A stretch of DNA of 64,000 nucleotides, taken from assembly GCA_040285855.1 (NCBI GenBank), contig JAUFOQ010000004.1, positions 124,001-188,000 on the forward strand, written 5' to 3'. Within the stretch, counting starts at the first letter, position 1. Each line of letters begins with the position of its first letter. Positions 7,592 to 63,642 of the stretch are shown piece by piece. The notes beneath the pieces are model-generated. The model searched no databases, was not told the DNA's origin, and was given only the letters and a program-made list of their open reading frames with translations. The position numbers and the translations under genes are program-made. The stretch is from Eukaryota sp. GEM-RC1 (Eukaryota).

Positions 7592-7888
7592 TCTACATTA
7601 CTGCCTGTTCTTCTTCCCTTCTTTCCTTCTTCCCCCAGGCTTCTACTTTGTTTCCAATTGGTTTCTAATTTGTTTTTTATTTGTTACTCTTTCGTGTTGA
7701 ATTATCGATGACTCATCTTTTATTTTTGGTTTGGAAGTTTCAAATTTTCGATGTCTTGTCGTTATTGGTTTATAAATATAATAAATTACCGAAACTTGAT
7801 ATGATTCATGCAACACCCTTCAAATAAAAATCTCAATTGAGTGAATTGTTATCACTTCTGGTGTTTACATAAAACAAAACACTTTTGC

Positions 7889-9038
7889 AAATTTATTAAA
7901 CTATTCAACTTGCCCTTGTGGAGCTAATGGAGTTTTGCATCATATAAGTAATTGTCGTTATTTTATTCATCTACGTGCAGTAATTCATGATGGTGTACGT
8001 GATTCTTGTTATTTCAGGTTTAAAGCACACGGTTTTCACTCTAAAGCAGGGATGCGAAAAAATATATTTATTTAAATAAATTATTGTTCCCGACGAAAAT
8101 AAATATATTGTTATTGTTGTGGCCAACAATAAATATATTGGTATTGTCAAGTTTGGAAATAAATAAATGAATATATTGGCAATATTTCTACGCAATCCGA
8201 TGACTCATTTTTTTGTGGTCTATTCGCCATTATCCGTAAAATTTCCTTCACTGTCCAACAACCAGGTCAAGGGTTAGTATTAAGACTGTTGCGAACAGTA
8301 TCTTCACCATAGATTAGAGTTATACATCAATAAAAGTTGTTTTTCCAGACTTGATGTATGTAGTCTTGTGCGAAGGGTTTCAGCAGTCACATTAGCACGA
8401 CTAAATAGTCCTTCTATTTGCTTGGATGGACCTGTTATAAAATCAATCTAGTGAGATTTGGATTAATGAGAATCAGGGACATTTTACAAACGCTCTGGTA
8501 TGTCCCACGCAAAAAGTTCTTCTGAATGTTTCTCACTCTTACGATCATCAGTTCTTGATTGCAGTTTAGACTTTGTTGAACTACATCAGTTCAAAAGCCA
8601 AACAGTCAACAATTTGACGTAAACAAATAGTATACTCTATTGTATAGGTTGTTTTTCCTGAAGCGAAAGCCCTTCAGAGAACTACTGCCCCCACATCACA
8701 TCTTCTTGCTCCCAAATGGAAGCAAAATTGCATGTAACATGAAACAGATGGATGATTTTAGTGAAGAAAATTATTGCCACAATAAACAATATTATTGCAA
8801 TATTATTGTTTACTGCCGGGACTCACAATAAATATATTGTTATTGTTTTGACCAACAATAAATTTATTGTGAATATTTATTGCAATAAATAAAATAACAA
8901 TATATTTTTTCGAATCCCTGCTCTAAAGTTGAACCAGTTTTGAATCACATTTTAGAAAGTGAAAGATTAATCTTAGTATTATTTGTTTGAATTTCATAGT
9001 TTTGTAGGAAGGTTACCTTATTGGGTACCGAATAAAGT
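7889..9038 (+). mobile_element. Internally deleted CRE-like LINE fragment, split by a hAT element
   Basis: 7889-8046 plus 8929-8960 match 38000-38190; ends in the family 3' motif TTTTGTAGGAAGGTTACCTTATTGGGTACCGAATAAAGT. Confidence 0.8.
8047..8920 (-). mobile_element. hAT deletion derivative
   Basis: TIR CAGGGATGCGAAAAAA / TTTTTTCGAATCCCTG; perfect TSD CTCTAAAG (8039-8046, 8921-8928); minus-strand remnant IEGLFSRANVTAETLRTRLHTSSLEKQLLLMYN resembling the hAT dimerisation domain. Confidence 0.9.
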
Positions 9039-30376: not shown

Positions 30377-30974
30377 TATAAAAGAGGAAAGAAAAAATTC
30401 CGATTATTCAGTTGGTAAAAACAGAACAGAAAAAAGTCTCAACAGACGTCACTACCCTTCACTTAGTCTCATTCCATGATCAGAGTGTCGAGATGTAATG
30501 AATAAACACTGTCGTTAATTTGGAATCCAATTCTGAACAACGTTCTTATCCTAAATGAACATCATAATACTGCTGATGAAGTCTCAGTTTGTGACAGGAT
30601 CGGAAAGAATATTTAACAATAAATATCGCCCTACCCCTCAACTACAGTGAACACAACTTGTTGGATCATACAATGAATCTTAATCTTCTACATTTACTCT
30701 TTTGACTTCAGTATTGACCAGGGTTTCTCATAAATAAACATAATTTATATTTATATTTATTTTTGCCACTTTTTCACGATCATACAACTAGAACAAAATA
30801 GAACAAAATATATATAAATATGAATAAAACGCCAGAAAATACACTTCATTGATCTACTTAGTGCACGAGTTAATTAATTGCTCAAGGTTTTCTATGAAAC
30901 TTTATGCAGTACCCAATAAGGTAACCTTCTTACAAAACTATGAAATTGTAAAAACAAACAAATAATACTAAGAT

Positions 30975-31755
30975 CACTCAACAACCACGTTCTTTGGGTT
31001 TGCATTTGTCTGATGAGGCTTGGAAATTAAATATGCGATTGCGTTTAGGTTTGTTTTCTGCAGAATTGCTGGACAATTCTGAGTGCATTTGTAGTCATCG
31101 TCGCAGTGCAACTTTTAGACATCTAATTAATTGCCCCAAATTTATTCAATTTCGCTCAGTTCTTCATAATGCTGTAAAAGATGTTACATTTGAAATGTTT
31201 AAGGCTCATGGATTTCATGCCAAAGTTGAACCCTTATTTAGTAAGTTGGGTCTTGATTTAATTAATAATTCTCGTCGAGGTGACTTACATGGTCCTTTCG
31301 TTGATTCTAGTCAAATTATCCTTGATGTTACAACAGTTGATCCATGTGCTCAAACTTATGTTAATGGCTTGAATTCAAAAGGTTTTAATCACCTAGAAAC
31401 AGCTGAAAAACGTAAAATTGATTTGTATTCCAAAGATGTTGCTAAACTCAATCAAAATTTATATTTGTTCCATTTGCTATATCTATTTTTGGTAGTATTG
31501 GTGAAATGGCTTCTAAGTTTTAAACTGATTTTGGATCTATGTGTCAGTCTCAGAATAATAGATTTAACATATCAATTTGGCATAACCGTTTGATTTTTTC
31601 TTTGTTCCGTTCGGTGCCTAAGTTTTTTAAGTCAATCTTCACAAAGTTGTATAAGAACTGTGGTACTGTTGACCAGGAATTTTCTGTGTCTATTGTTTCA
31701 TAGCTTTTATTATGATATGTATTTGTGTACCCTCCATCAATAAACTGTATTTTTT
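30975..31755 (+). mobile_element. 5'-truncated CRE-like non-LTR retrotransposon (CCHC plus restriction-like endonuclease domain)
   Basis: ORF 30994-31593: C.C...HLINC...LHN...EP...RGDL...DVTTVDP...AEKRK. 10-bp TSD ATACTAAGAT (30965-30974, 31756-31765). Confidence 0.88.
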
Positions 31756-31785: not shown

Positions 31786-32394
31786 CAGGGGTGGGACAAC
31801 AGAATTGCTCCAATATTTATTTCCGCTCGTTGAGGTGGAGCAATATTTATTGTTACACCGGTTAATTATTACAATATTGCAATATTGTTCATATACTTCA
31901 AGTTGTTCATTTCGTTGTTTCGCATCACCATTTGGACTTCCAAAACCATTTTTGTTGTCTTATGTGTTTAAATATAGTGAGAGTTGCTTTATCGGTAATG
32001 ATTTCTAGTTGTCATAATGTGTATTATTTGAGCTCGTTCGAGTCTTAACTGACGTACAATGTAAAATCTTTCCTCTGAAGTGATTTTCTCTTGAGCCCTC
32101 CAGTCTTGAAATGCAAATAATGATGAAAGAAAACAGTAATTTTTTAGGATGAAGCTACTGTAAGACAATCATGAGCAGTAAACAATTCGATGATCTAGAC
32201 AATTGTGTTGAGATTGTTTCGGATACTTGTGACGATGATGAACAATATCATATGTGGGTGTTTTGTAATAAATACATAATATGATTCGACCAATATTGCA
32301 ATATTTATTGGTACTACTGTATTTCAGAATTGCAGTATTTATTTTGTGGCTAAAAAATATTTATATTTATTGCAATATTGTTTTCCCACCCCTG
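31786..32394. mobile_element. hAT-type non-autonomous element
   Basis: TIR CAGGGGTGGGACAAC / GTTTTCCCACCCCTG; perfect TSD ACTTCATC (31778-31785, 32395-32402). Confidence 0.9.
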
Positions 32395-32408: not shown

Positions 32409-34711
32409 CATGGTGCGCAAATTAGCGGTACGTACCGATTTATTTTATCCGTACCGATGACATTTGATGTCTAATACAGCTGTGTTCATAAACAATTTTA
32501 TTCTATTCAAAAACACTATTTCCAGAGTTTAGGTGCATCAAACTGTCAAAGTCGGCATCATCACAATTTTCTTCTGCCTCTTCCATTCGTTTGGAAATCC
32601 ATTGTTCGAGTCTTTGGGCCTTTTTGAGTGATCTCTCACGTAGTAGTCGTTCGTTAAATGCTATGTGAGTTAAAGCCGACAGCGTTGATGTTTTCATACG
32701 ATTCCTAAGCTTCGTTTGTACCATTGACATTGTGGAAAAGTTACGCTCAGCAAATGATGTGCTGCTGATTTGACTAAGAGTGATTATCGCGATCTTTTGA
32801 AGTCTTGGATATCCAGAGCCATGTTTCTCCCACCACTCACCTGGAGACATTGTATCAGCCAGTGTACGAATGAATTCCGTTGCTTCTGCAATTTCTTGAG
32901 CAAAGCTGGTCATATCGTTTGGGATCACAACCCCATTAGCTAAATAGGCTGTCAATTCACTTTCACAGATATGAGCATCTCCTTCCTCAAGAAGCTTACT
33001 ACAGAGAGAATAAAAACTAGCCATAATACGCAACATTTGTTCACTTTGCCCCAACCCCCTTACTGCTTCGAAATGTTTAGGATCCAACAGAAAGGCAACA
33101 TATTGGATCGGAGTCAGCAACATACTGATTCTTGTATCGTAGGCTTTCAAGATTTCGTTTCTTTCTGTTGCTGACAAAAGGTTGGAAAACTGGTTCCAAT
33201 TTCCGATCGGACGGTTGCAATTGTGGGCACAATTCTGCTGATGTAATGTGCCTCCGAATCAACCATCTGTAAAAATACAACCACTGGCTTCCAGAAAGAG
33301 ATGATCTGTTTCACTTGATTCCAGAAGAACAGATTTTGAGTTTCATTCTGCAAAGCAGTGTAATCACCTCTCTGATCCCGATTCTGTTTCTTCACCCAAT
33401 TCTCGAATAGAGGGTCAGCCAGTGTTTCAACAACGGCTTCTCGTAACTCATAGATTCGAGACAAGCTCAAAAAATGAGTATAAAATCGTGTGACAGCATA
33501 CTTGATCAACATTTTTGAGATTTTTCAAGGAAGAGACGTTTTAGTTCAACATGGTTGTTGATAACTTTAACAATTTTGTTAGCAATGCCGATTACTGTTT
33601 TAAATTCTTGGCTCTTACAAGAATCTTCGAGAAAAAGATCCAAACAATGTGCAGCACATGAAGTTGTGTAGATTTTTGGGTGTACTTCTTTAATAAGCCT
33701 CGTAGCTCTGAGAAAATTTGACCCATTATCTGTCACAATTTGAACAATTTTGTCTGCTCCGAATTCTTGAATGTGAGCCAAGAGATAACGAGCAATAACC
33801 TCTTCGCTGAGTTTCTCCCTAAATTTTTTTGCTTCTCGAAATACAGCACCATCAGCTGAAACCAAAAGCACATTGACAATAGTTTGATCGTTGACGTTTT
33901 TCCACCCGTCACAGATCATTGTGCACTTTGTTGTTGAAAATCTTTGCATTATAGGAATAAGACGATCTGTAGTATCGAAAACTGTTTCCTTAAGAGTCAC
34001 AGTTCTAAAAGTGGTGGTACTAGGAGGTTGCCAATGCTTACCGTATTTTATGGCTGATAGAAGTAGGTCAGAAAGTTCAGAAGATTCAATGGCTCTGAAT
34101 GGAACATTGAACCGCGCAAACAGCTTCATTGCGTTTTGGTTCATTTTACCATGTCCCACTGTTTGAAAATCATCCAGTTTCGCTTGTTTAAGTGGAGGTT
34201 GAGTTGTATCTGAGGTCTGTGGGACTAAAACTACAGCTGAAGGAGAATGAGGAGGGGATATCGGATTTATTCCAAAAGATCGTATAGCACTTCTAATTGC
34301 CATTGTGAGAGAGCTTTGCGGATTCTGACAAGGAGCACACCCAACATTTTTAATCTCAGGAAGAAAGTGACCCAAGATCCGTGACTCTCTTCCCCTTAAT
34401 GTTCGAGGACAGTGGCGACAAGTAGCAACTAAGTTTCCATCGATCTTATGAATATCAGTGAGTTGTTCTGCAAGAGCAGTGTTTCTGAAGAAGCTCGACA
34501 TGTAAGATGGAGGGAAGCCTATGTATTCAGTAGAGTATAGTTGATACCAAATTAATTCTCACAAGGGTTATCATCTACTAGTACATATTTGGAATCAATC
34601 ATATTTATTTTTGTCGGTCAAAAGAACAGTACTGGTACACGTACTGTACGTACGTACGGTACGGTACGGTACGCCTAAAATCGCCTCGGTACGGAACATT
34701 TGCGTTCCATG
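32409..34711 (-). mobile_element. Full-length hAT DNA transposon
   Basis: TIR CATGGTGCGCAAAT / ATTTGCGTTCCATG; perfect TSD TCACCACC (32401-32408, 34712-34719); GTACG subterminal repeats; transposase inside. Confidence 0.93.
32503..34501 (-). CDS. hAT transposase (BED finger, DDE core, dimerisation domain; two frameshifts)
   Basis: CRHC..H..C, CDGW, TDNGSN, CAAHCLDL, TRF, WWEKHG...AERNFS...KLRNRM across ORFs 33506-34501, 33147-33512 and 32503-33177. Confidence 0.92.
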
Positions 34712-37317: not shown

Positions 37318-37869
37318 GATTATATCTTTTGTTTTCTTTTGTTTGTTAGTTCGTTTTTGGGTTAGTGTTTTCTTTTTTATTTCTCTCGGTCCTTTTTGTC
37401 AGTGTGTTGCTGGTCCTTTTTGTAAACAATTTAATTATGGGCCGTATTTACATGTAGTCCTTTTTAGGAGATAAACTATCCTTACACGGAATTTTCTTGA
37501 AAAGACGGTTGGTTATTAAATAGATACCAATTTGCTAGCAAAACGAAAAGTCAAAACAACACATACAGTGTATCCTAGATTTGGTGTCAAAAACTTGAAA
37601 CACTTTTGAATAACCTGTTAAAATATTTTGTACAAGAGTTAATACAAACAACATCGGAAACATATTATATTACAGTTACCGTGTGTAACTATAAATAGCA
37701 TACACTGTGATAGAAACTGTGTGGGTACCTGAAACGGATTGTACAAAATTAGTGAGCATGCATCTACCGTAAATCAAAATGCAATCATCTGGAGGACTTC
37801 CAAATTCCATGAGAGTATTAATTGCAGATTTTACAAATATAGACCAGTACAATGATCTAAGGATGGATA

Positions 37870-38697
37870 GTTTCTTTTAATTGACCGTTGTAATAGTGGA
37901 CCTTCTGGATGTATTTCTCAAATTCCTAAGGTTTTAGAATTACATCTATCCGATGAAGCTGGGATGATCAATATGCGTCTTCATTTGGCTATTTGGCCAG
38001 CAAATTTATTAAACTATTCAACTTGCTCTTGTGGAGCTAATGGTGTTTTTCGTCATTTAATTAATTGTCGTTATGTTATTAATCTACGTGCAGTAATTCA
38101 TGATGGTGTACATGATTCTTGTAATTCTATGTTTAAAACACATGGTTTTCACTCTAAAGTTGAACCAGTTTTGAATCACCTTTCAGAAAATGAATTAACA
38201 GACCAACAAGAGGGGATCTCCATACTTCATGGCTTAAATCGAGTCAACCATTAATGGATTTTACTACAGTAGATGTTTGTAACAAATTCTGTGTCAGTAG
38301 GATATTAGATTCTTCTTTTAATCCATTAACAGCTGCTGAAAAGCTCAAACATTCCAAGTATAACTCTCAAGTAGAAGAATTAAATAGAAACTCATATTCC
38401 AAATTTGTGTTCCAACCTTTTGCTGTTTCTCGTTTTGGATCGATTAATCCTGCTGGTGATCAATTTTTCAAGGATTTCGAAGAACTGTGTAAGGAAAAGA
38501 AGTGTAAGTTTAGAATGGCTGAATGGAAAAACCATATAGTGTTTTCCATATAATGGACTATGACTTTCTATTTTTCTCGATTAGTTGGTGTGAAGGTTAA
38601 TGTTGAAAAACGTAATCTTTTACCGGACGTGAATGAAGTCGTTTTTGCAATTTCATAGTTTTGTAGGAAGGTTACCTTATTGGGTACTGAATAGAGT
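37870..38697 (+). mobile_element. Decayed CRE-like LINE 3' part (RLE domain) with the family 3' terminus
   Basis: ORFs 37964-38254 and 38254-38553 (CSC..HLINC...HD...KVEP...DFTTVD...AEKLK..KY...FQPFAVSRFG); 3' motif at 38659-38697. Confidence 0.85.
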
Positions 38698-38784
38698 CTA
38701 ATATCTATTTATGGATGGAAGTGAATAAAGCAAATGTGGGAAACAGTGCTAGGATTATTGCGATTTGACCATAAATAGTTGAGG

Positions 38785-38940
38785 AATCGCATATCGTATG
38801 TTAGCGTCTGTTTCTAGCGCTGTATTATCTCTAGGCAGACATTATGAGGATAAGGTAGGTGAGAATTTCCAGATAGTCAACCTGGACTTTGAGGATATTG
38901 ATTATTAGATGTATGTACACTGTAGTGTTGTTGTCAATAA
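38785..38940 (+). repeat. Dispersed repeat, probably the 3' end of another LINE subfamily
   Basis: High similarity to 56811-56980; ends in AATAAA. Confidence 0.7.
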
Positions 38941-39885
38941 ATAGAGTTGTGTAAACAAAATATGTTAATGTTGATGGTATTCTATATTTGTAAACCAGAA
39001 GGAGAAATCAAATGTGTTTCTTGTTTGAGCTATAAAGCACCAATAGCAACAACTATCCGACATCACAATCAACCAGAGCGTATTCATATACCATATTTCG
39101 TGGTGTCATATGAATACTTTAGCCAGGAGCAGTCCTTTATTAGTTCTACCCAATTGATAAGCATATTTCAACTATAGAGGATTGCATTTATCATCAAAAC
39201 AAGATTATGTTGAACAGTCCTAAAGTGTTCAAGATAGACATTGGTGACTATGGGTTAGACAGGTTAGTGATACAATCAGAAATGGGTCACTGAATGGACG
39301 ATTCGAAATAAAAAGACCATATTACTGTGTTTTATACGATATATATTATAGGAGAGGAAGAGATGTGAACACGGAGGGAGAAAGAGATTCAAACATAAGA
39401 TACATGAAGAGAAGCTACAGGAACTAAGAAGAAGAAACGGAAGGAGAAGTCAGGAGGAACATTACGGAATTTTGGTCTGTATTTTATGGAAAGCAGCGAG
39501 AGTGACGAATGGCCAGGGTTGTTAATTTTGAGAAGATATGTTCAAGTGAATTGAGAAGATCTTCAACTTGATGAAGAAGTGTTTGCTAGACATTAATAGT
39601 GGTTTCAGTCATCAGCAGGTGGCTTATTTATGACAGATGCTTCAAGAATGTCCTTGAAAGTACACAAAGTTATAAAGACAGTCAAGGTATAACAAGGTAT
39701 AACAAGAAGAAAACAAGACGAAAAGGGGTGTAAGAACTAGAAGAAGTTTTACTGTAGTATTAGTATGAAGGAAAACAAACTGCATTCCAAAATCAAATTG
39801 AACTATAGATCACGAAACGGAATCCAATGGAGGGGAAAGTAAGAACAAATCAATCACATTATCGACACCGACTATTCTTGGTTTC

Positions 39886-42800
39886 ATGAATCCCTTTCCG
39901 TCAGTGAACTGTGCTAGAGGTCCTGTTTCTCCTCATCCAATGAGAGGTGTGAAACGCCTTTCAATGGAACTATCTCCAACTCCATTGAAAGCACAAAACA
40001 TCCAGACATTGGATAAATTATTTTGCTTTATGGAAATCAGAGCTATTATCTCTGAAGACCATCGCCTCAATCCAGAGGTCGCTGAGGAACATGACAGTGA
40101 TGATGAAGACTGTCAAGGGCCACAAGTGAAAGACCTAATACACGAGTTTTCCTATGATGGAAGTAACGATTCCATTGTTTCTGTATCAATGGAATTTTGC
40201 TCGTCTCTTGGGTGTCAAGGCGACACTTATCTCTTTACTTGGGGTTGCAATGAACTATATATTCAAGACTGTTCTATCAATGGTTTTAGTTCAGAAACAT
40301 TGATGCTGGTTAATCTGATTGAATTCCTCAAAGCTATGCGTCCACAGCTTTTGATTGGATATAACTGTGACAAGTTCACTTTTCCATTTTTGATTTCAAG
40401 ATGCAACCATTTGATGATTGATGTTAATTTTCAATTTGACGGATATACTCCATATGTACCCACATGGTTTAAGAGATGGTGCAAAACGTCCTCTTTTGGT
40501 CCATTTCACTGCCTGGATTTAAACTCAGTTTTAAAATCCTTGTACAAATTTAAAGGTGGTCGCTTTTTGGAAAACGTAACTCAAATTATGTTGGAACATG
40601 ATCAAAAAAATTGGAAAAATTCCGAATTAATACGAATTCTAACCAATCCTCTGTATAATATTGATGAAGCTATCGCTAATTTCAAAGCGGAAAATAATGT
40701 TTCTGCACTATCTGCAAAGCAATTGTTTAGGTTAAAAACTTCTAGTGAACTAAAAACAATCAATGACCTTTGGAAGGCTTCATCAACAAGACCCCGTTTA
40801 CTCCAAAATGCAATTGATCGCCTGCATCTGTTAAAATTCATTGCTTGTGACTTGTTTGATGGAAACAAGCAGAAAATCAGAGAAAAATCTCCAATGAAAG
40901 TGATTAAAAGAAGACTCACCAAAGTTGTGACAAAATCAAAAATCAAAGTTATCGAATCGTGTGTGAAAAGAAGTCACCACGTTAGAGTTCGAGGAACTCA
41001 CTTCCTAAAACATTTTTGATTCACGAATTTGACTGTGAATATTTGAAATTTAGAGATTCTATGGGAACACATTGTAATTTGCCAAATTACTCGAAAATTC
41101 TGGATCAGAAACCTCTGAAGGTTTTGTTATCTTTGATGACGATCAAAGAGGACGGCTCATCTGACCATTTGAGCCAGATAGTCCTTGAACGCCAAGAAGA
41201 CCTGAAAAAGGTCGCAAAAAAAACCAATTCTTTGAATCTGTTTAAAATTCGACTTATTAATCATCTACTCACTAAGTTCCTTCCTCTTTTGAACGCTGCT
41301 GCTATAGTTGCTGGTAAGCAAATGGTAAAATTCCCAAGTAACTTGTACTTACCCAGACTACTTGATTACATGGCCACTGAGATCTCCACCAGTTACAAGA
41401 ATAATATGGCAAAACACTTTCACTCCTATGTCTTTCGAGTCTTCAACTTAGTAACGGAGAAAAAATCTAGAGCCATGAAAATTGAGTGTGAAGATGAACG
41501 AAAACTTTTTTCCAGCGGCTTAACAGCATCCGAGAGTTGATTGTCAACGGACAAATTGATTTAATTGATTTTCAGGATCAAACTATTTTTCCCACCAATT
41601 CTAGGTTAACTATTGCTTTTAGGACTTACTTGACATGTCAATTAAACAAGAAAATGCCAAAGGGATTATACTATGCTCAAAAAGTAAACCCTCTTAAGTT
41701 CCTTTCACATGCAATCTATCTGAACAGACTGATTGAGGAATTCTGTGATAATGTCTCCGTCACCAATCCCTTTCCAGTGACGTCATCACTAATTCCTGGT
41801 CACGTGAGACTGGACTCTAACTGGTTTCAATTGAGATTCTTACCAGATCTCAAGGGAGAAATGGATACAATAAGGAAGGAATTATGGAATACTGTTCTTA
41901 AACCAAAATCAGTTCCAACTTCCCTATCTTATGACTTTGCTTTTACCTCTATTACAACGGATGGTGTTTCTACTTCCCTGCTCATGACAAGAAAGGATTT
42001 GTTGGACTCTCATGGAAATCCTAGAAAAAATCTTTCAGCAAATGACTTGGCTGCGGAAGAACGCTATGTGGACTCTCTGACAACGGAAGAAATTACTAAA
42101 TTAAATCTCACAGGCAAAAAAATCGTAGCAATTGATCCTAACCAACACGATTTAATCTTTTGTGTTAGTCCGAAAACTGAGAGCGAAAAAAATTCAAGAG
42201 GGATTTGACCTGTCAAATAAGACTCGATCTAAACAGCTTTCACAAATTAATTGCAAAAAGAAAGGGGGGATACAAAAAGAGAAGAAGAGACTCAAAAAAG
42301 AAAAGAAAAGACTCAAAGCAGAGACAAAAAGAAAAAAAGAAATCACCAAAGTTAAATTGAAAAAAAGCCACAGCTGGAAAACATTCCGGTACACAGCTGG
42401 TGAACGAACTGCTGACCAGAGAGGCAGATTTATCAAGAAAAAGAAAAAAGAACAAGCAACCATATGAGCAAGTCAGAGAGCCTGACGATGAAACCTCAAA
42501 GCTTCTGAAATTCACCACTACAGTAAATGGTCGTCACATGACTGGCAAGGAAATTGCTGATAATTTCAGCTCCAGAGTATCCTCTGGCAAGGTAAATTCG
42601 GTTACCCCAGATAAGTAAGTACCCTTTTGGTTACGTCATTTTGGTTACCCCACAACCACTTCTGCGGGGTAACCAAAAGAATAGAAGTACTTTGTAGATA
42701 AGTACAGTTTGTATCTGACAGAAACAGAAGCTTATGGGGCTATGATAGACACATTTTACGAAGAAAAGTCTTTCCGACGCCAGAGACTGAAGAGGTACTC

Positions 42801-43694
42801 GAACAATCAGATGAGTCAGCAAAATATGCTTCATCGTTTTGCTCAAAAGTTCGGATCACCAGGAGAAGTAATTATTGGTTTTGGTGATTGGATTGATTCT
42901 AGAAAAGCCAAACGAACTGGAAAACGATCATTTGTAAAAGGCAAATCTATGAGGAAACTTTTCCGAAAATTCGGATACCAAGTTTTTCTAGTCGATGAGT
43001 ATCGAACTAGCAAATGCTGTTCGAGTTGCACATTGCTTGGAACAGAAGGCTTTTGCTCGAACCTAAAAGATGACAAAGTCCGAGACCCTAATTGGAAAAT
43101 TAAGTTAAATCGTAAAAAGAAGAAACTTCAGAAAGAGGTTGTTGAGTATAACCAAAAATTACTGTTGGGTAAAGATCAGAGAAACTTTAAATATGAATGG
43201 GAAAAGAAAAAGATGGATTAAAAAGCAAACTCCAGGAAGCAAAGGTTTCACTATGGGGCTTAGTGCGATGCGCCACGTGTGAAACATACTGGAACAGAGA
43301 CTTTAACTCTGGTATCAACATTCACAGTATTATTGAAGCAGCGATCCAAGGTAGAAGTAGACCTTCCGTTCTTGAGAGAAAAAAATCTCAAACAAATGAA
43401 TTCGAGAACGGAATGGCGATTAAGAAGAAAAGAAAATGCACAAACTGCGGCGAAGTCGGTCACAATTCTAGATCATGTTCTAAGAAGAAGAAAGAAAGGA
43501 AGATGATTTCAAAGATTTTGAGAGAGTGTTCAATATGTCATGAGACAGGTCATGACAAAAGGAACTGTCCGATGAACAGAAAAACTGTTGATCAACAGAA
43601 GACAAAAGAGAACGGAACAGGATCAACAGAAGACTGTAGTGCTAAAGTTCATATAGCTCCTCTTAGAAGTGTGAGCAAGAAAGTCTGCATGTAA
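39886..43694 (+). CDS. Fanzor1 RNA-guided endonuclease with an N-terminal PolB-type exonuclease-like domain and two C-terminal CCHC knuckles (about 1240 aa after repairing 5 homopolymer indels and removing an 87-bp insert)
   Basis: Fanzor1 motifs in order: LDYMATEISTSYKNN..HF, IPGHVRLD, SITTDGVS, RuvC-I VAIDPN (D 42134), FRYT, FYEEKSFRRQRL, IIGFGDW, RuvC-II LVDEYRTSKCCSSC (E 42997), LWGLVRCATC, RuvC-III WNRDFNSGINI (D 43299), RP..L.R. Confidence 0.9.
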
Positions 43695-43701
43695 ATGTAG
43701 A

Positions 43702-43781
43702 GATCTGTGAAGTATTATCAATGGTGGTATGATTTGTAGGGAAGACCTAAATTATGCAATTGATGTGAAAATCACAGGGTC
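43702..43781 (+). ncRNA. Candidate Fanzor omegaRNA scaffold (long stem-loop)
   Basis: Starts 8 nt after the Fanzor stop. Four stacked helices (43702-10/43772-81, 43716-22/43759-65, 43727-34/43750-57, 43737-40/43746-49) with a GAAGA loop; several G:U pairs favour the sense strand. Confidence 0.55.
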
Positions 43782-43816
43782 ACTGTTTAATCATTTTTCG
43801 TTTCTTGTAACTATTA

Positions 43817-45919
43817 ATGGGTAATTCACTATGTCACACAAACACTTCCGTTGAAGACGATCCTGTTGAACAGGATGTTCTAGATGAACTTCCTGATGAC
43901 TTTCATGATGGAGAGGAGCGTTTCTTTCTCGAAGAAGAAGAACCTGAAGAAGTTGAAGAAGAGAACTTCATGGCCATAAGACCCTGGATTGGTCCTATGA
44001 ATGGATCAACACCTATGGAATACCGTGATCCTAACTCCCTTCCCCCCAAACGAAGAGCCTAAGAAAAGTTTGATGCTGGACTACGTTTATGGCGGTTTGT
44101 ACCTCCCTGCTTTTCCTTATTCCAGTCACAACTCAGGGAATCCGTTCACATGTCCAATTTGTGAGTGACGATATGCTTGTGTATCCCGCTGCCGGAGTTG
44201 GTGTAGTCCTCTCTATTTCCTCCAACTTTCAATCCTTCTTCCGTGGACACAACAACGATATTTCCGCCTTAGCTGTTTCCAAGGACAGGTCTCTGGTTGC
44301 CACAGGACAGATTGGCAAACGCGCCAGAGTTTGTATTTGGGACCCCATTTCACTGAAAGAAGTTGGTAGTTTTACTTCTCTAGAAAGAGGTGTTATTGCT
44401 GTTGCATTCGACCATACTGGCCGCTATGTTGTTGCTGTGGGTAACGACGACTATCACTCTGTTGCTGTCTATGACATTAAAGCACAGAAGCAAATAGCAC
44501 TCCAACGTGGTGAGCGTAACAAAGTTTACCATCTATCTTCCTCTGCCGCTGGTTTCATCATGGCTGGTCACAACTTTGCTCGTCTTATTACCATCAACAA
44601 CGACGCAGTTGACATTAAGAAAGTCCTCTTTGGTTCCGGATCCTCCCGTGCTCAAGTTGTTCCCTTCCCCTGCTGTGCTGCACTTGCTGATGGAAGAGGT
44701 ATTCTAGGTAGTTCTAAGGGTGAACTGTACATTATGAGTGGTAACTCTGTTACTAGCACTGTTCAAGCTCACAGTGGACCAGTACTAACGATCTTTGCTG
44801 ATGATTACGGAGTTGTTAGTGGAGGAAGAGACTGTACCGTTAAGTTGTTCTCCACCAGTCTCAAGCAACAGACTTCTGTTAAGTTAGGTGCTCCTATCCG
44901 CTCGGTCTCTCGTCTTCCCTCGGCTTCTTCTCTCACCACTGGACTTGCTGTTACTCTTGAAGATGGATCTATTTATCTCTTTGATTTCATTGAAGATGAA
45001 GGTAAACTTATTCAGAAGTGTCATGGTACTCTGTCCTATGCTGGTAAAGCTGGTTTAACCATCTCTGAAGCCTGGGGAATTGCCGTTTCTCCTACTGCAC
45101 CTGAGTTTGCTTCTGTAGGTGACGATGGTCAGCTAATTAGATACTCTGCTGTTGACAAGAAGGCTCTGAACTATATTAGATTGCCTAATGTGTCACGGTC
45201 TGTTTGCTATTCCCCCTGATGGAAGGATAATCGTTACTGGTCTGTCTGATGGAAGAGTTGCCTCTTTTAATTCTGAGACTCTTGAGAAGCTAAACATTGT
45301 CACTCTACCCCGAAGAAACCGTAGACCAATTCCTGATCAACTATCTAAACAGTTTGCTGAATGTGGTGTTTCTGATATTAAGTTCTCTCCTGATGGTGAG
45401 ATGATTGCTTGTACTTCTCACACTCAGGACATTTTCGTTCTTTCAAAGGATTTGCAGTTGTTACACACCATGGCAGGCCACACTGCTCATGTTAAAGCTT
45501 TCGATTGGGATACCACCAGCTCTTATCTTCAGTCAATGTGTGGTGGTTACGATTACCTTTTCTGGGACGCTAAGAATGGTAAACAAGTGACCTCCGCTTC
45601 ATTCTTTGCAGATAAGGAATGGGCCACCTGGAGTTTAGTTATTGGATATGCTACCAAGGGTATTTTTAAACCAGCTCAGAAAGGAAGTGATATTAATACT
45701 GTTGCTAAATCTAATAACAGTGACCTTTTGGTAACTGGAACTGATGATGGTACTGTTGAGTTGTTCAATTTCCCTGCACTTCATGATAATCAAGAACGTA
45801 AAATGTATTATGGACATTCTGCTCATCTTACTGGTGTTGTATTTGCTCCTAATGATGAGATGTTGTTCTCTATTGGAGGGCGCGATAACTGTATTTTATC
45901 CTGGTTTGTTGAAGAATAG
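43817..45919 (+). CDS. EML/EMAP-like HELP plus WD40 microtubule-associated protein (31-nt intron 44095-44125; two frameshifts)
   Basis: FMAIRPWIG, spliced LDYVYGVTTQGIRSHV, YPAAGVGV, GHNNDISALA, WATWSLVIG, SDINTV, YYGHSAHLT, SIGGRDNCI; N-terminal MG..C. Confidence 0.88.
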
Positions 45920-50949: not shown

Positions 50950-52060
50950 CAAAACATAACATCTTTTGTTTCCAGGACATTCAACTACAATATGAATTTC
51001 ACAACTGTTGATCCTTGTAATTCCAGATATAGCCATTAGAATGGAATCACTGCGAATAAATAACCTAGGACAATTAACCAAATGATGAAAAGAAGAGATC
51101 TTCGCCGATTTCCAAATACACTTGCTATATTGCAGTAAACCAAAAGGCACAATCCTGGACGTAACCCTACATTTTCTTGCCATTCATGGTCTTCTAGATT
51201 AAAGATGTATCTACCTGGAAGTTGGGTAATACATGTAAGAGAAAAACATTCATTGTAAAATAATTGAAGTACTGGAGTCAAAACACTTAAATTTGAAATC
51301 ATTAGAACAAAATCCATCACGATCAAGTCACACAACAGCTCTGTTCTTATAAATCAGGGGTCCAGAAAAATATATAAATAATAATAAATAAAAAATTAAT
51401 TAATTAATTTTTCCATCTGAATTGTTAGCTAATACTATGTGTTGTTGTGAAAAGAGACAAAAGCTGACTTCAGACACATTGTTAGTTGCAAAAAATTTCT
51501 TCAGTTTAGATCGATTTTACACAATGCTGTTCGTGACGTTACGTATGAAATGTTTAAATGTCATGGGTTTAATGGGAAAATCAAACCTCTTCTTAAGCAT
51601 TATAGTGATGATAATATTACCAATTCTCGACGACGTGATCTCATTGTTCCATAGGTTGATTCTTGTCAAGCTGTGATAGATTTTACTACTGTTGATCCGC
51701 TAAAGTATATTTGAATTCAGTTGCGAGTGATACTGAAATTCATTTATGCAAAGCTGAAAAAAAAATTAGTACATATTCTGACACAATGATCAAACTGAAT
51801 TCCAATTTGTATTCTTCTTTTAAGTTCATTTCTTTTGCTATTTCAATTCTTGGTAATATTGGATTTGCTGCTGAAAAATTCTTTGATGCCTTTTCAAAGT
51901 TGTGCCGTGATCATAGGAAAAATTTTAATCAGTCTCTTTGGCGCAATAGCATTGTTTTTTCCTTATATAGAAGTTTCCCAAAGTATTTGAATCGTATTCT
52001 GGACAAATTGTATCGTGGTAGTTCAAGAGTAGATGTGGATCATTTAATATGTTTTAACTA
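50950..52060. mobile_element. Cluster of decayed CRE-like LINE fragments in both orientations
   Basis: FTTVDPC near 51000 (+); HEWQENVGLR..HHLVNCP at 51030-51340 (-); DFTTVDP..AEKK..FAISILGNIG..WRNSIVFSL at 51420-52050 (+). Confidence 0.75.
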
Positions 52061-52264
52061 CTGGTTGTTTGTATTTCGTTAATGTATAACATAAAAAAAA
52101 AGTATAATATATAAATAATAATAAATAAATAATCTACTTTAACTAGCGTCTTCTAGTTTTGGTTAGTGTTCATTGTACGTGGTAGCTTGGTGTCTTCACA
52201 TGAAATCGTGTTCTTAAAAATACTCTCTTTCTGTGTTTATAAATTAACGAAATACAAACAACTA

Positions 52265-55346: not shown

Positions 55347-56580
55347 CTATGACAAGTAACTGGGTCTAACTCCTGCTAGTAGACCCCGCTCCAAATGATG
55401 CTCTACAATAGCTTTGAAGTTGATTCATGCTAACTTACGATTCCACATTTTCTTCTTATCACCACATTCTTCTCTACACTTCTCAGACTGACATCACAAC
55501 AACGCATGTAACTTCACCATAGGCTTCTTTTCTTGTGTCTTGGGTCTTGGATTGTTAACTTCCATAAACACTTTAACTGGCCTCCAACAAGTAGGACACT
55601 TTGAAGACGTGTAACTCTCATCTACAAGAACAATATTGTAACCATTTCTCTTAAAGAAGTTTCTCCACCCCACACCTCTACTTGATCGGAGGTGTTTTAG
55701 GTTCTGCATCTTATTACCATTGTCACCAAACATCTATACACTGTCATTTTTATTCAATCCTTTTTCAGTCATATTTTTCAACAATTTACTTTCTGTTTTT
55801 TGAATATGGACATATCTTTGCATTTTTGAACGCGCCATATCATCAAACAGTAGTAATCAAATGTTGATTCAATAACTGTCAGTTTGGAACTCACATAGTC
55901 GTAGAAGGTTTCATAAACGGTCGACTTTGAGTTTTTTTTTGGATAGTGTTGACTCTTCTTGTTCAACAGTTTTTCCATTTTCTAGAAAGAATCTTTTCTT
56001 CTTCATTCTCCTGAACTTTTGATGGACTCTAGACAATCTCAACCATTCTGTCTCTGTTTATCTTAGCCACTCGTATTCTTTGTTTCTCATTTTACGGGCT
56101 AAATTTTGAGGCCTTCTTATTTTTTCTGAACAGAAGTAGAGTAAATCGTTTTTGCCAGGATCAATGTAAACTTTTGTTTTCCATGAAAACTCTTCAATAT
56201 GATAGTCTTGAACATATTCATCAGTACTGGAGAACTTTGCGCTATCTGGTTTAAATGACATTCCCACACAGTCCTCTCTGGCAAGTTCAACACAAGCAGA
56301 GAAACCATCAGTTTTAATAGAATTGTTAAACTTATTATAGCCTTTCTTTTGAAATGGACGATTAAAATGGAAAAAGTATGTCCAGAATTGATTTTGTTCA
56401 GTGGGAGCTGAGTCATGTGATCAATTTCAACTTTTGTGTTCCACTCAGATCTTCCTTGTTATTTTAACCTGATGATTGGTTAATGTGGAACGAAATATTC
56501 CCCAAAGACCTTGTCTATCCACTTCAAAGAAGCCTGGAATCACATATGCTATTACACTGTCTTTGGAAGCAATAGTGTAA
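55347..56580 (-). pseudogene. Decayed second Fanzor1 gene
   Basis: NSIKTDGFS, RuvC-I VYIDPGKNDLLY, NSKST, FGD, GVGWRNFFKRNGYNIVLVDESYTSSKCPTC, NPRP...LHALL*CQSEKC...WNRKLA*IN...RPSYLS*; in-frame stops and frameshifts. Confidence 0.88.
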
Positions 56581-56810: not shown

Positions 56811-56980
56811 AATCGTGTTTGCTATCTTTAAAGGTATGTTTACTTCTGTATCTAGCCCTGTATTATCTCTTGGCAGACATAATGAGGATAAGGTAGTTGA
56901 GAATTTCCAGATAGGTAATCTGGACTTTGAGGATATTGATTATCGGATGTATGTAGACTGTAGTGTTGTTGTTAATAAAA
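56811..56980 (+). repeat. Dispersed repeat, probable LINE 3' end
   Basis: Matches 38785-38940; encodes IVFAIFKG, like the C-termini of the other RLE LINE copies. Confidence 0.7.
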
Positions 56981-56981
56981 G

Positions 56982-57067
56982 TAAGAATGAAATTCCTTAA
57001 AGATGAACTTACATCCTGTTTTGTTAAACATAGGATTTAAGTTCATCTTGAAGGAATTTCATTCTTA
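56982..57067. repeat. 86-bp near-perfect inverted repeat (foldback)
   Basis: TAAGAATGAAATTCCTTAAAGATGAACTTA (56982-57011) vs its inverse at 57038-57067 with 1 mismatch in 30, plus a further inner stem. Confidence 0.9.
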
Positions 57068-57817
57068 ATGTTCTTCGAACGATTGACTCGTCGTTTTCTG
57101 ATTCTCACAATTGCTCTTGCTGTCTTCTATTGTGGTTATCTCCTTCCATTCAGATCACTATCATATTGTTCATCTGAGACTTGCACTAATATCCCTCTGC
57201 AAACACGTTTCATGGTGTGGTTACCTTCATTTCTATTTTTTACTCTATTCGCTGCTGTTTGCATTAAACTCCTTCTTGCGTCTGGTCACGTGCTAGTTCA
57301 TGCCAGAAAAACAAAAGTCTCTGCCATCGTCGTCATTGCTCTTTCTACCATAACTCTCGCCCAAACAACCTCTTTTCTCCTGGCCCATAAGTCTGTACTT
57401 CCACTATCAGTCTATATTGATCAAAGTAGTGATGATTTCTCTTTTACAACTTCATTCCTCGCCTCCTCTCTCAATATCTCTCTTCAAGGGATACCATTGT
57501 CCCGATTCGAATCAATCGGCTTCTCTCCTTCCTCTCTCACTGCACTTCTCTTCTCAAATTCAACTGATGTTTCATTAGAGACTTTTGTATACCCTCACCC
57601 ATATTTAGATTTAGTTGGGGAAACACGTGGTACTATTTCTGATGACGGGAGCTCTTCAATCATTTTTGATGTAGATGATGACGATTACACTTGTTTGATA
57701 GTATTTGACGATCAGTTGTTTGAATTAGGCAATGGTTTCGTTTTAGATGGTTCTGTTATTGATTATACTTTGTGGATTGATATGAGGTTGATTATACCAA
57801 TCAAAAAAGATTCATGA
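57068..57817 (+). CDS. Hypothetical membrane protein (3 N-terminal TM segments)
   Basis: 249-aa ORF with hydrophobic stretches; no family recognised. Confidence 0.55.
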   Translation: MFFERLTRRFLILTIALAVFYCGYLLPFRSLSYCSSETCTNIPLQTRFMVWLPSFLFFTLFAAVCIKLLLASGHVLVHARKTKVSAIVVIALSTITLAQTTSFLLAHKSVLPLSVYIDQSSDDFSFTTSFLASSLNISLQGIPLSRFESIGFSPSSLTALLFSNSTDVSLETFVYPHPYLDLVGETRGTISDDGSSSIIFDVDDDDYTCLIVFDDQLFELGNGFVLDGSVIDYTLWIDMRLIIPIKKDS

Positions 57818-61489: not shown

Positions 61490-61727
61490 TGGTGTAAATT
61501 GGAGCAGTGGAAGCTCGAGAATATGTACTTGATGAAGTTGGTGTTGATGTGTACATCTAAAGACTGTATCAGGACAGAAGAATCAGTCAGGTCTATGAAT
61601 ATTGAATAAAAAGTGGCCAAGAATTGTTTATGTCGGAAAACGAGAAAATATCTCAAATAGACACGTTCCAAACACCCATTATCAAAAATAGACACGTTGT
61701 TGAATCCTTCCAACATCCTCCTCCTTC

Positions 61728-62723
61728 ATGGATAAAGACGAGGAAACTGCGTTAGCATCTATTGTGCGTCAGAAGAACGAAGCTGCTGACAAACTCACTG
61801 CTGGATCTCTTTTTCTCAATAAAATGGAGTTACAAGTTGCTCTTAAGCATTATAACTTATTCCGTGGTGCTAAAACAAAAGTAACTGCAAGTAGTGGCGA
61901 TCGACTGTCGACCACATGTCTTGATGCACAATGCTCTTTCAAGTTAACATCTACATCACAACGTCCCGGTAGACGTACCATGTCTCGTAAGATTGTATTG
62001 GAGAAGTATCCCTTCAAAGTGAACCAGTTTTCCCCTCATACATGCCATGGATCCCTTTCTACTACCAATCCAAATGCATGTCCCTTATTCATCTCCAGAA
62101 ACCCTGTGGTCCGAACCAAGATTCGAGCAAATTCTTTTTATTTAACTCGAGACATAATGCATGATATGAAGATCCTTTACAATGTTGATGTTCCATATCT
62201 TACCGCACACAGGGCGAAGAAATTTTGTATCGACGATATGTTCGGCGGATATGAAGAAAACTTTTCTCTTCTTCCTCTCTATAAATACTACTTTGATCAG
62301 ACTGCTCAAGATTCTATTCTTATTTATTCCACTAATAATGAGATTTTTGACAAACTGTTTCTAATGTATGGAGCCAGTAGAAAAGGATTTGAATTTTGCA
62401 GCAAAGAGCTGCTCATGTAAACGATGGCAAAGAACGGCTACCCATGTCCTCACGCATTGGCTGTGTTTTTGAAGAAGAAAACGATGCCAACTGAAGGAAT
62501 TGAGGACATACATTCTCTTCAGAACTATGCCTGCACATATGTTGGTATTATTCCGATAATGCCTGATAGATCAGAATGGGCAGAAGTGAGAGGATTGGAT
62601 TGTGTGATTGCCCCCGATCCAAACAATGCTCCTGGTAGACCACGTAAGAAGAGAGCGGATCGTTTTGCATCGCATCAAGCAAGAAAAAGAAGGTTAAGAA
62701 GTCTGACATCGACAATTGGCTAG
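61728..62723 (+). mobile_element. Mutator/MULE transposase relic lacking the catalytic core
   Basis: MuDR-like N-terminus (FLNKMELQVAL...C....CSF...HTC), G.YEENFSLLP.Y, LF....ASRKGF..C, then directly SWIM-like GYPCPHALAV and PGRPRKKR. Confidence 0.8.
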
Positions 62724-62844: not shown

Positions 62845-63642
62845 TAGGGTTGTTAAAATGAGCCGAGTCAAGCCTACAATTTGAAGCTTGACTTGACTCA
62901 TGAGTCAACCAAGCCTGACTCGAGCTGACTCACGGACAAAGATACAGGCTTGACTCGACTCATGAGTCAAACGAGCCTAACTCGAGCTGACTCATGTTGA
63001 CTACCTTTGACTTGACTTGGCTCATGAGTCAACCAAGCCTGACTCGAGCTTACTCATTTTGAATGCTGTTTTCTATTGTACTTTATAACATAACACAAAT
63101 CCTTCTGTTTTCTACTGATCTGAATTTACTATAGTTATTGCAGTATTGCACATAGTCTAGCCCTTTTCTTTGTTCCAATTTGGTTTGCAGCAGAGAACAA
63201 ACGTTCAATTGCTGCTGAACTTGGCTGAATGCTTAAGTAGTCGTGAACTAAGCTAGGGTAATCTGATTGGTAGCGTTTCCACCAATCTAGGGGATCCACC
63301 GCAGCATCGACTATGCCTATTGATAAGTAAACTCTCAGCTCATCCCGCACATTAACAAGCAAATGAATTTATACAGAGAACAGCTTTTAATTCCATGTAC
63401 AGGTGATTGTAATAGAATACGTTTAAATTGTACTAAATTATATTCATTAGAGCTAACTAGAGTAGATCTTACTCAAAGACAAAAACATATGCTTGACTCG
63501 ACTCATGAGTCAAACGAGCCTGACTTGAGCTGACTCACGGACAAAGATACAGGCTTGACTCGACTCATGAGTCAAACGAGCCTGACTCGAGCTGACTGAC
63601 TCAAAACTCAGTGAGTCAGCTTGACTCAAAATTACAATCCTA
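62845..63642 (-). mobile_element. hAT deletion derivative with GACTCATGAGTC subterminal arrays
   Basis: TIR TAGGGTTGT / ACAATCCTA; perfect TSD TCTGTACT (62837-62844, 63643-63650); ORF 63135-63362 PLDWWK...YLSIQPSSAAIERLFS...KKRARL. Confidence 0.92.

Follow-up and report, generated by a model that had tools for sequence, protein, structure and literature searches.

The window analysed here, a 64,000-nucleotide stretch of Eukaryota sp. GEM-RC1 (contig JAUFOQ010000004.1, positions 124,001 to 188,000), carries seven consecutive reading frames that together resemble an oversized Fanzor1 nuclease with the exonuclease domain of a family B DNA polymerase (PolB) at its N-terminus. The locus raises the question of whether such a gene, broken as assembled, is a working single-copy nuclease or one member of a mobile family. 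A sequence-only reading had proposed a Fanzor1 of unusual complexity, with a head like the PolB exonuclease and a CCHC tail, and this architecture was upheld. On balance, we favour the view that the exonuclease–Fanzor1 family is present in many copies and is probably mobile, and that the window holds an interrupted member of it that is likely to be inactive.

The exonuclease–Fanzor1 fusion

Both halves of the fusion lie in the first reading frame (piece 1, Table 1). Residues 94–187 matched PF03104 (E 8.5e-10; 38.9 bits against a curated cut-off of 23), in agreement with the proposed head, and residues 332–377 of the same open reading frame (ORF) matched positions 5–51 of a Fanzor1 profile (independent E-value, iE, 1.4e-5). 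The profile was built from 42 proteins of 550–850 amino acids (aa) that contain a W/FxRD motif, drawn from the best 150 of 211 matches of a representative search; the three records named below contributed no row to it. Because both domains occupy one unbroken ORF, the fusion needs no sequence repair; two separate adjacent genes were rejected as an explanation on this ground.

The nearest named relatives of the gene were NCBI models from records that bear the names Eukaryota sp. GEM-RC1, TZLM3-RCL and TZLM1-RC, which, judging by these names, we take to be skoliomonad metamonads. All relatives with P numbers are gene-model proteins without their DNA. The junction between exonuclease and Fanzor is also spanned by P0002, P0003 and P0006 (about 41% identity), and two models from TZLM3-RCL (hereafter RCL), P0013 (RCL1_003437, 1473 aa) and P0167 (RCL1_003595, 1479 aa), comprise the exonuclease domain and a complete Fanzor in a single chain. 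P0013 and P0167 matched PF03104 (E 5e-13, 49 bits) and the TnpB zinc-finger family (E 2e-7 and 1e-6), and aligned to residues 134–1144 of the window read-through at 27–28% identity. An hhalign comparison of the two species showed a collinear fusion junction (probability 99.8), and a search for copies found the same exonuclease–Fanzor architecture in further GEM-RC1 and RCL models. We regard the fusion as almost certainly real. Neither whole model, P0013 or P0167, had a polymerase match in Pfam. A whole polymerase or Polinton remnant was rejected, since the neighbours are host genes, the whole models gave no match to a palm domain, and the searches of viral contigs and phages gave no relative.

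The best match of the head among solved structures was yeast Pol delta (3iay; about 160 residues, E 4.7e-9). Archaeal PolB and RB69 matched it too (E 1.5e-5 to 9e-4), so Pol delta is one of several candidate donors of the head. Atlas features of the head pointed to PF03104 clusters (0.93), and an NCBIfam search returned weak PolB-type matches only. Single-sequence structure models had a predicted local distance difference test (pLDDT) value of 33 for the exonuclease domain and 36 for a second model, too low for use, and were set aside. A profile built from five exonuclease heads matched 7 of the 173 collected proteins at E < 0.001, four of which were themselves in the profile; all seven came from the GEM-RC1 and RCL records, and the best ordinary Fanzor reached E 0.03.

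The motifs of the head are named here ExoI, ExoII and ExoIII, following established usage. At ExoII the window copy reads YNCDKFT against YNCDKFD, an Asp to Thr change between identical flanks; at ExoIII the YxxxD motif aligned to NAIDR, a motif that MAFFT places uncleanly; and the DxE pair of ExoI is absent in both registers. The head of P0002 is degenerate like that of the window copy. FDVE, YNCDKFD and YCxND are kept in all three RCL models that span the domain (P0013, P0167 and P0169), where ExoII aligned to YNTTNFD of Pol delta; the assignment of ExoI and ExoIII was made from motifs and not from a structure. Judged by these alignments, the exonuclease is degenerate in the window while its motifs are kept in a related species, a point that the sequence-only reading had missed: the domain it described is present, its catalytic residues are lost in this copy.

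Copy number and relationships

Besides the window's own copy, its family includes six models at 84–100% identity (P0007, P0158, P0159, P0010, P0170 and P0171). The GEM-RC1 record holds a second family of six models (P0002–P0006 and P0009) and a third with eight cluster members; the RCL record has four members, two of them whole, and TZLM1-RC two fragments. The exonuclease head was seen in the window family, the second family and RCL, and the third-family and TZLM1-RC fragments end short of it. Possible domestication, which had been suggested for this gene, is contradicted by these several multi-copy families in two protist records; six near-identical models plus further families argue against a single domesticated gene. 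That the family is multi-copy and mobile is very likely.

In a tree of the REC/WED/RuvC-I region, made by a quick method with a midpoint root and with too-short fragments left out, the 14 rows from these protists formed one branch against 42 ordinary Fanzors (Shimodaira–Hasegawa-like approximate likelihood ratio test, SH-aLRT, 97). With all 14 rows on one branch, the tree suggests a single origin, the lineage having captured the exonuclease head once. Among the best 150 of the 211 representative matches, one protein exceeded 900 aa, namely P0013. No relative was found among 44 pattern matches in viral contigs, phages gave no match, and metagenome contigs gave one Fanzor1, missing its 5' end, among at least 584 pattern matches. 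This Fanzor1 (L001:1-2070) is ordinary-looking and lies in a eukaryotic metagenome contig, next to genes for flagellar WD40 and RING-ligase proteins.

The Fanzor1 core

All seven plus-strand pieces described earlier, with the Fanzor1 motifs in order, were found (Table 1). Pieces 1, 2, 3, 6 and 7 cover the Fanzor1 profile in order, and pieces 4 and 5 had no significant match to this 42-protein profile. In searches against solved structures, piece 3 matched SpuFz1 (8gkh, E 2.6e-10), PpFz1 (E 7.1e-6) and GtFz1 (E 8.6e-4), and piece 6 matched SpuFz1 (E 3.8e-8). P0170 aligns to piece 5 from its own Met at 94% identity, and P0171 reads pieces 6 and 7 in a single frame at 98% identity.

Table 1 Features of the exonuclease–Fanzor1 locus, with positions counted from the first nucleotide of the window.
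Feature	Coordinates	Strand	Description
Piece 1	39886..41019	+	377 aa; PolB 3'-5' exonuclease-like domain, then Fanzor1 N-terminus, one frame
Exonuclease-like domain	40020..40848	+	catalytically degenerate by motif alignment
Piece 2	40986..41540	+	Fanzor1 REC region; profile positions 87-166, iE 2.3e-11
Piece 3	41498..42208	+	REC/WED and RuvC-I; profile positions 183-400
RuvC-I catalytic Asp (IDPN)	42134..42136	+	in piece 3
Piece 4	42156..42467	+	lysine-rich RuvC insertion and FRYTxGER segment; collinear with P0013, P0160, P0164 and P0010
Piece 5	42361..42618	+	linker leading to the insert; frame in use starts near 42445
87-bp insert	42610..42704	+	8-bp direct repeat at 42610-42617 and 42697-42704
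Piece 6	42685..43221	+	bridge region, RuvC-II Glu (42997-42999), first CxxC (43018-43029); profile positions 452-572
Piece 7	43197..43694	+	second CxxC (43269-43280), RuvC-III Asp (43299-43301), two CCHC knuckles, stop; profile positions 578-633
CCHC knuckles	43437..43478 and 43527..43568	+	zf-CCHC, E 2.5e-4 to 1e-3
Long stem-loop	43702..43781	+	immediately after the stop codon; putative omegaRNA scaffold

A read-through with X at the six breaks has 1239 aa, close to the length of about 1240 aa that had been estimated, and contains IDPN, VDEYRTS, WNRD, the CxxC..CxxC zinc finger and two CX2CX4HX4C knuckles, as claimed. It agrees with the Fanzor1 motif D-X(125,275)-[TS][TS]-XX-C4 zinc finger-X(5,50)-RD given by Bao and Jurka (2013, PMC3627910): the D to TS spacing is 261, and WNRD lies six residues past the last Cys. 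The D to TS spacing of the RCL models, 281, is slightly beyond this range. The D-E-D triad is complete, with IDPN, WNRD and a RuvC-II Glu that has moved to directly upstream of the zinc finger (VDEYRTSKCCSSC); a Glu relocated to the side of the zinc finger is described as a Fanzor1 feature (PMC13565253). No coding segment outside the 87-bp insert contains a stop. As assembled, the window copy is not one open reading frame, being interrupted by five single-base shifts and by the insert with its three stops.

Frame breaks and the insert

Single-base shifts at A/T runs, as reported earlier, were seen at five junctions between pieces. Near-identical models cross junctions 2 (P0007 and P0158), 3 (P0010) and 6 (P0171) in frame, and junctions 1 and 4 are crossed in frame by more distant relatives only. 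The same type of break was confirmed in host genes of the window: in TRAPPC3 and in EML, the break falls within a single Pfam domain, and the profile positions continue across it without a gap. Host single-base breaks lie at about 21980 (TRAPPC3), 23750 (ZIP transporter), 53870 (radial-spoke protein), 44045 and 45215 (both EML) and 5140 (a mannose-1-phosphate guanylyltransferase-like gene). Over 14 hand-picked host coding spans (12.0 kb), 6 breaks were counted for 37 homopolymer runs of at least five bases, and the Fanzor gene had 5 breaks for 34 such runs (Fisher p = 1.0), a ratio that is approximate because some host breaks sit in shorter runs. Since the rate per run equals that of the host and relatives cross each break in frame, the five shifts are probably assembly errors. 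The assemblies of the named records are described as Nanopore reads corrected with Illumina (10.1101/2023.05.03.539051).

The remaining interruption is the 87-bp insert. Its length is a multiple of three, as the description of an in-frame insert implied, but it holds three in-frame stops, upstream of RuvC-II. P0170, which is 94% identical, runs straight across the insert site, and with these two findings the view that the nuclease is intact does not stand for the sequence as it reads. An internal 13-bp inverted repeat of the insert forms a stem (z-score, z, -4.2). The insert ends are not inverted repeats and no second copy occurs within the 64-kb window; a hAT-type miniature inverted-repeat transposable element (MITE) was accordingly rejected, since the 8-bp duplication is present but terminal inverted repeats and another copy are not. 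Bases in 8-mers shared with the flanks make up 19 of 79 in the insert (0 of 1000 shuffles and 0 of 1591 other window stretches), which comes down to one 10-mer present in both orientations; shared 6-mers cover 43 of 79 bases (6 of 1000 shuffles), and 5-mers show no excess (143 of 1000). From the 8-bp duplication, the flank-derived patches and the hATs nearby, we infer a repair or hAT-excision scar with templated filler.

Splicing was considered as a way around the stops. The best-looking pair of sites in the insert (83 nt) gives a frameshift and an immediate stop, and two GT-AG introns near 44100 and 46930, read by eye, are about 31–35 nt long. Because the insert has three stops and P0170 has no insert, the window copy is likely dead unless the insert is spliced out. 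Among the three states, we lean towards a dead copy, with splicing well behind it and an artefact the least expected.

The 3' hairpin, element ends and accessory parts

Fanzor1 guide scaffolds are reported to sit 3' of the gene (PMC10432273), where the window copy has the long stem-loop. Its stability was z -2.3 in the sense orientation (4 of 200 shuffles as good) and z -0.8 in antisense; the best of eight offsets reached z -3.8, which 3 of 100 background windows equalled, one of them inside the knuckle-coding region. No Rfam family matched the hairpin, and a sub-threshold Rfam snoRNA match was treated as chance. For the omegaRNA-like hairpin proposed earlier, position and strand bias are plausible and statistical support is modest; as a sequence feature, it is modest evidence for a guide RNA. 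Another hairpin, at 43521-43620 inside the coding sequence of the second knuckle, was more stable than all 200 shuffles (z -3.5), and may belong to a more extended guide scaffold that overlaps the end of the ORF.

Terminal repeats with target duplication were sought between 37320-39885 and 43695-43816. The best score was 15 and four control pairings scored 16–18, in line with the stated lack of terminal inverted repeats; the same scan recovered the ends of the neighbouring hAT element (score 20). Downstream of the hairpin there is no tail of poly(A) or simple repeats.

CCHC knuckles occur in 2 of the 173 collected proteins, P0171 and P0011, both from GEM-RC1. The RCL models have a different accessory part. 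Three RCL models extend into the N-terminal region; two of them contain the sequence GDVEANPGP, and the third reads GDVEANLGP. This 2A-like motif lies upstream of the exonuclease–Fanzor chain, at about residues 102–121 of P0013, P0167 and P0169, and the gene models diverge upstream of it. The 2A motif is given as GD(V/I)ExNPGP, and its presence is no guarantee of activity (PMC3708506). It is absent from the window, and 2A and knuckles do not occur in the same lineage. In the lineage of the window copy, it appears, the knuckles were added and the exonuclease motifs decayed.

Setting of the locus in the window

The window represents a compact eukaryotic genome, with genes for CDC20, TRAPP subunits, radial-spoke, EML and RCC1 proteins and several transposon remains. 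The Fanzor locus is flanked by host genes for a PP2A-family phosphatase and EML. A hAT transposon at 32409-34711 has DUF659 and a hAT dimerisation domain with two frame breaks, and adjoins a hAT-type MITE at 31786-32394; each has a perfect 8-bp target duplication. Related repeats at 30952-31593, 37871-38553, about 2190-2790, 7887-8140 and 51369-52082 are presumably the 3' remains of elements like long interspersed nuclear elements (LINEs). These repeats have short tail sequences in common and had no Pfam match. At 61704-62420 and 62880-63600, an ORF without a Pfam match, which resembles the N-terminal part of a Mutator-type transposase, is followed by internal repeats.

A second Fanzor1, unrelated and plainly decayed, lies on the minus strand at about 55350-56460. 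It has IDPG, VDESYTS and WNRK, is 5'-truncated with several in-frame stops and shifts, and is without an exonuclease head. A 146-bp repeat (90% identity) is found upstream of both Fanzor loci, at 38796-38941 and 56834-56979. A background folding scan gave a 102-bp near-palindrome at 56974-57075 (z -6.7), and a further palindromic repeat lies at 8780-8927. The near-palindrome and these two repeats are probably MITEs.

Proposed mechanism and alternative explanations

By analogy with characterised Fanzor1 proteins, whole members of the family would probably be RNA-guided nucleases. Such proteins would take up an RNA encoded at the element's 3' end and cleave DNA next to a short target-adjacent motif (TAM), most likely at the empty site left by loss of the element, and repair of the cut site would copy the element back (restorative homing). 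Restorative cutting has been put forward as a role of the class (PMC13565253, PMC10432273). The element lacks a transposase and would depend on factors acting in trans for its movement. In its ancestral form, the exonuclease head would shorten the 3' ends left by cleavage and thereby hinder simple re-ligation; such an end-trimming role is a tentative suggestion, to which we give somewhat less than even weight. Trimming would hinder re-ligation rather than start resection, because SpuFz1 leaves 5' overhangs. In the window's lineage, the head may persist as a non-catalytic module that binds DNA ends, and the added CCHC knuckles may bind RNA or single-stranded DNA. The window copy itself is inactive in our estimate, though not by a wide measure. 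A further step, that of a natural RNA-guided two-nuclease enzyme in which Fanzor1 has captured a Pol delta-like domain that trims the newly cut ends, with release from a leader by 2A skipping in one species and a dead clamp plus CCHC knuckles in another, appears possible but doubtful.

A number of points weigh against the view of an interrupted copy of a mobile, restoratively homing family. Restorative cutting has been shown for prokaryotic TnpB, and Saito et al. (PMC10432273) call the role of Fanzors unknown. SpuFz1 cuts leave 5' overhangs (PMC10432273), and chewing of recessed 3' ends does not by itself make 3' tails for homologous repair. Mobility rests on copy number, because no terminal repeats or target duplication were found, and the tree behind the single origin has no bootstrap. 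Breaks per kb are more frequent in the Fanzor gene than in host genes (1.34 versus 0.50, Poisson p 0.04), P0010 and P0170 contain non-conservative changes, and every GEM-RC1 model is a fragment, which real decay would fit too. P0170 is no proof of an insert-free locus, because models can bridge breaks with false introns. The insert starts with GTAAGT, a strong donor, and ends near TTTGTAG, and in-frame splice pairs exist, among them 42615-42707 and 42592-42684 (93 nt each).

These last points feed the closest rival, in which the window copy is functional: the shifts would be assembly errors and the insert an intron or polishing artefact, and the product, some 1240 aa long, would combine an active RuvC with an exonuclease head that is dead. 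In favour of this, none of the three RuvC acids or the four zinc cysteines is missing, stops are confined to the insert, the shift rate per run is that of the host, and besides the donor and the in-frame acceptors, the 13-bp stem could shorten the effective intron. Against this stand the frameshift from the best-looking splice pair, the far shorter neighbouring introns, read by eye only, the 94% identical model without the insert, and the 8-bp duplication and flank-derived filler, which look like a mutation event; we therefore consider a functional copy unlikely, if the most serious alternative. At the opposite extreme, the whole family in this lineage could be decaying pseudogenes with real shifts and a head that is a once-acquired passenger without a role. 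The fragmentary models of the nearest record, the break rate per kb, the second decayed Fanzor1 in the window and the lost exonuclease acids fit this idea. It accounts poorly for break homopolymers that differ between copies while relatives cross each in frame, for copies 94–100% identical over long stretches, and for a head that still shows about 40% identity between families and between species and has its catalytic motifs in one of them, as a neutral passenger hardly would; we judge it improbable.

Spread via RNA, using a LINE-like reverse transcriptase and with the 2A-like motif and CCHC knuckles as retroelement parts, fares little better and is also improbable, if marginally less so. GDVEANPGP fits the 2A motif in two of three RCL models and is one change away in the third, knuckles occur in P0171 and P0011, and repeats that we read as LINE-like are common in the window, with one at 37871-38553. 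Jiang et al. (PMC10530073) describe an association of one Fanzor1 clade with LINEs. The missing poly(A) or simple-repeat tail after the hairpin speaks against this route, as do the separation of 2A and knuckles into different lineages, the lack of 2A in the window, and the fact that a motif alone is no active 2A. Domestication as a single host gene would agree with the lack of a transposase in the locus, of detected terminal repeats and with the host genes on either side, but one record contains two further families besides six or more near-identical models, and another has four members, which makes it highly implausible. The reading of one interrupted copy from a multi-copy family is the one we prefer.

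Comparison with known systems

In the order of WED, REC and RuvC and in the D..E..D triad, the protein is like SpuFz1 of Spizellomyces punctatus (8gkh, PMC10432273), PpFz1 (9cf0) and GtFz1 (9cer, PMC11423790); its IDPN motif corresponds to D383/N385 of SpuFz1. It also shares with these Fanzor1 systems the RuvC-II Glu directly before the zinc finger, the multi-copy state and an element without a transposase. Unlike ordinary Fanzor1 proteins (median 644 aa, maximum 765 aa in 42 relatives), it is about 1240–1480 aa long, carries a PolB exonuclease domain at its N-terminus, has the two halves of the zinc finger 80 residues apart and, in the window's lineage, has CCHC knuckles at the C-terminus; no terminal inverted repeats were detected. 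Large insertions in Fanzor1 are known, such as FRI, the RuvC insertion of PpFz1 (PMC11423790).

The head is like the proofreading domain of family B polymerases in its PF03104 profile match and in the ExoI/II/III-type motifs of the RCL models, and unlike these polymerases in that no polymerase domain follows it and the window's lineage has lost its catalytic residues. Engineered exonuclease–Cas fusions such as TREX2-SpCas9 (PMC13370227) likewise combine a 3'-5' exonuclease with a programmable nuclease; the present protein differs from them in being a natural fusion, with a putative PolB-type exonuclease and a Fanzor partner. An exonuclease carried by a mobile element recalls the accessory DnaQ-like exonucleases of long terminal repeat (LTR) retrotransposons (PMC6338049).

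No Fanzor with a PolB exonuclease domain was found in the titles and abstract openings of the openly accessible literature listed. The word 'exonuclease' is absent from the main texts of PMC3627910, the Yoon preprint and PMC13565253. The supplementary tables of PMC10530073 and PMC10711439, which are sequence lists with shortened cells, contain no fusion terms. The exonuclease–Fanzor1 fusion thus appears to be an undescribed form of Fanzor1, a view for which the family and its complete RCL members count more than the window copy does.

Significance for Fanzor biology

What role Fanzors play in biology has yet to be settled (Saito et al. 2023, PMC10432273). The window's own copy, probably a broken family member, matters less here than its relatives. 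The whole public models RCL1_003437 and RCL1_003595 allow the fusion to be tested without any repair, and exonuclease-intact and exonuclease-dead forms of one lineage constitute a natural experiment on the fate of breaks after cutting. If both sites are active, the protein would be a natural cut-and-trim editor; the two-nuclease reading, if true, would provide a natural counterpart of engineered exonuclease–Cas fusions and a handle on the role of Fanzors in their hosts.

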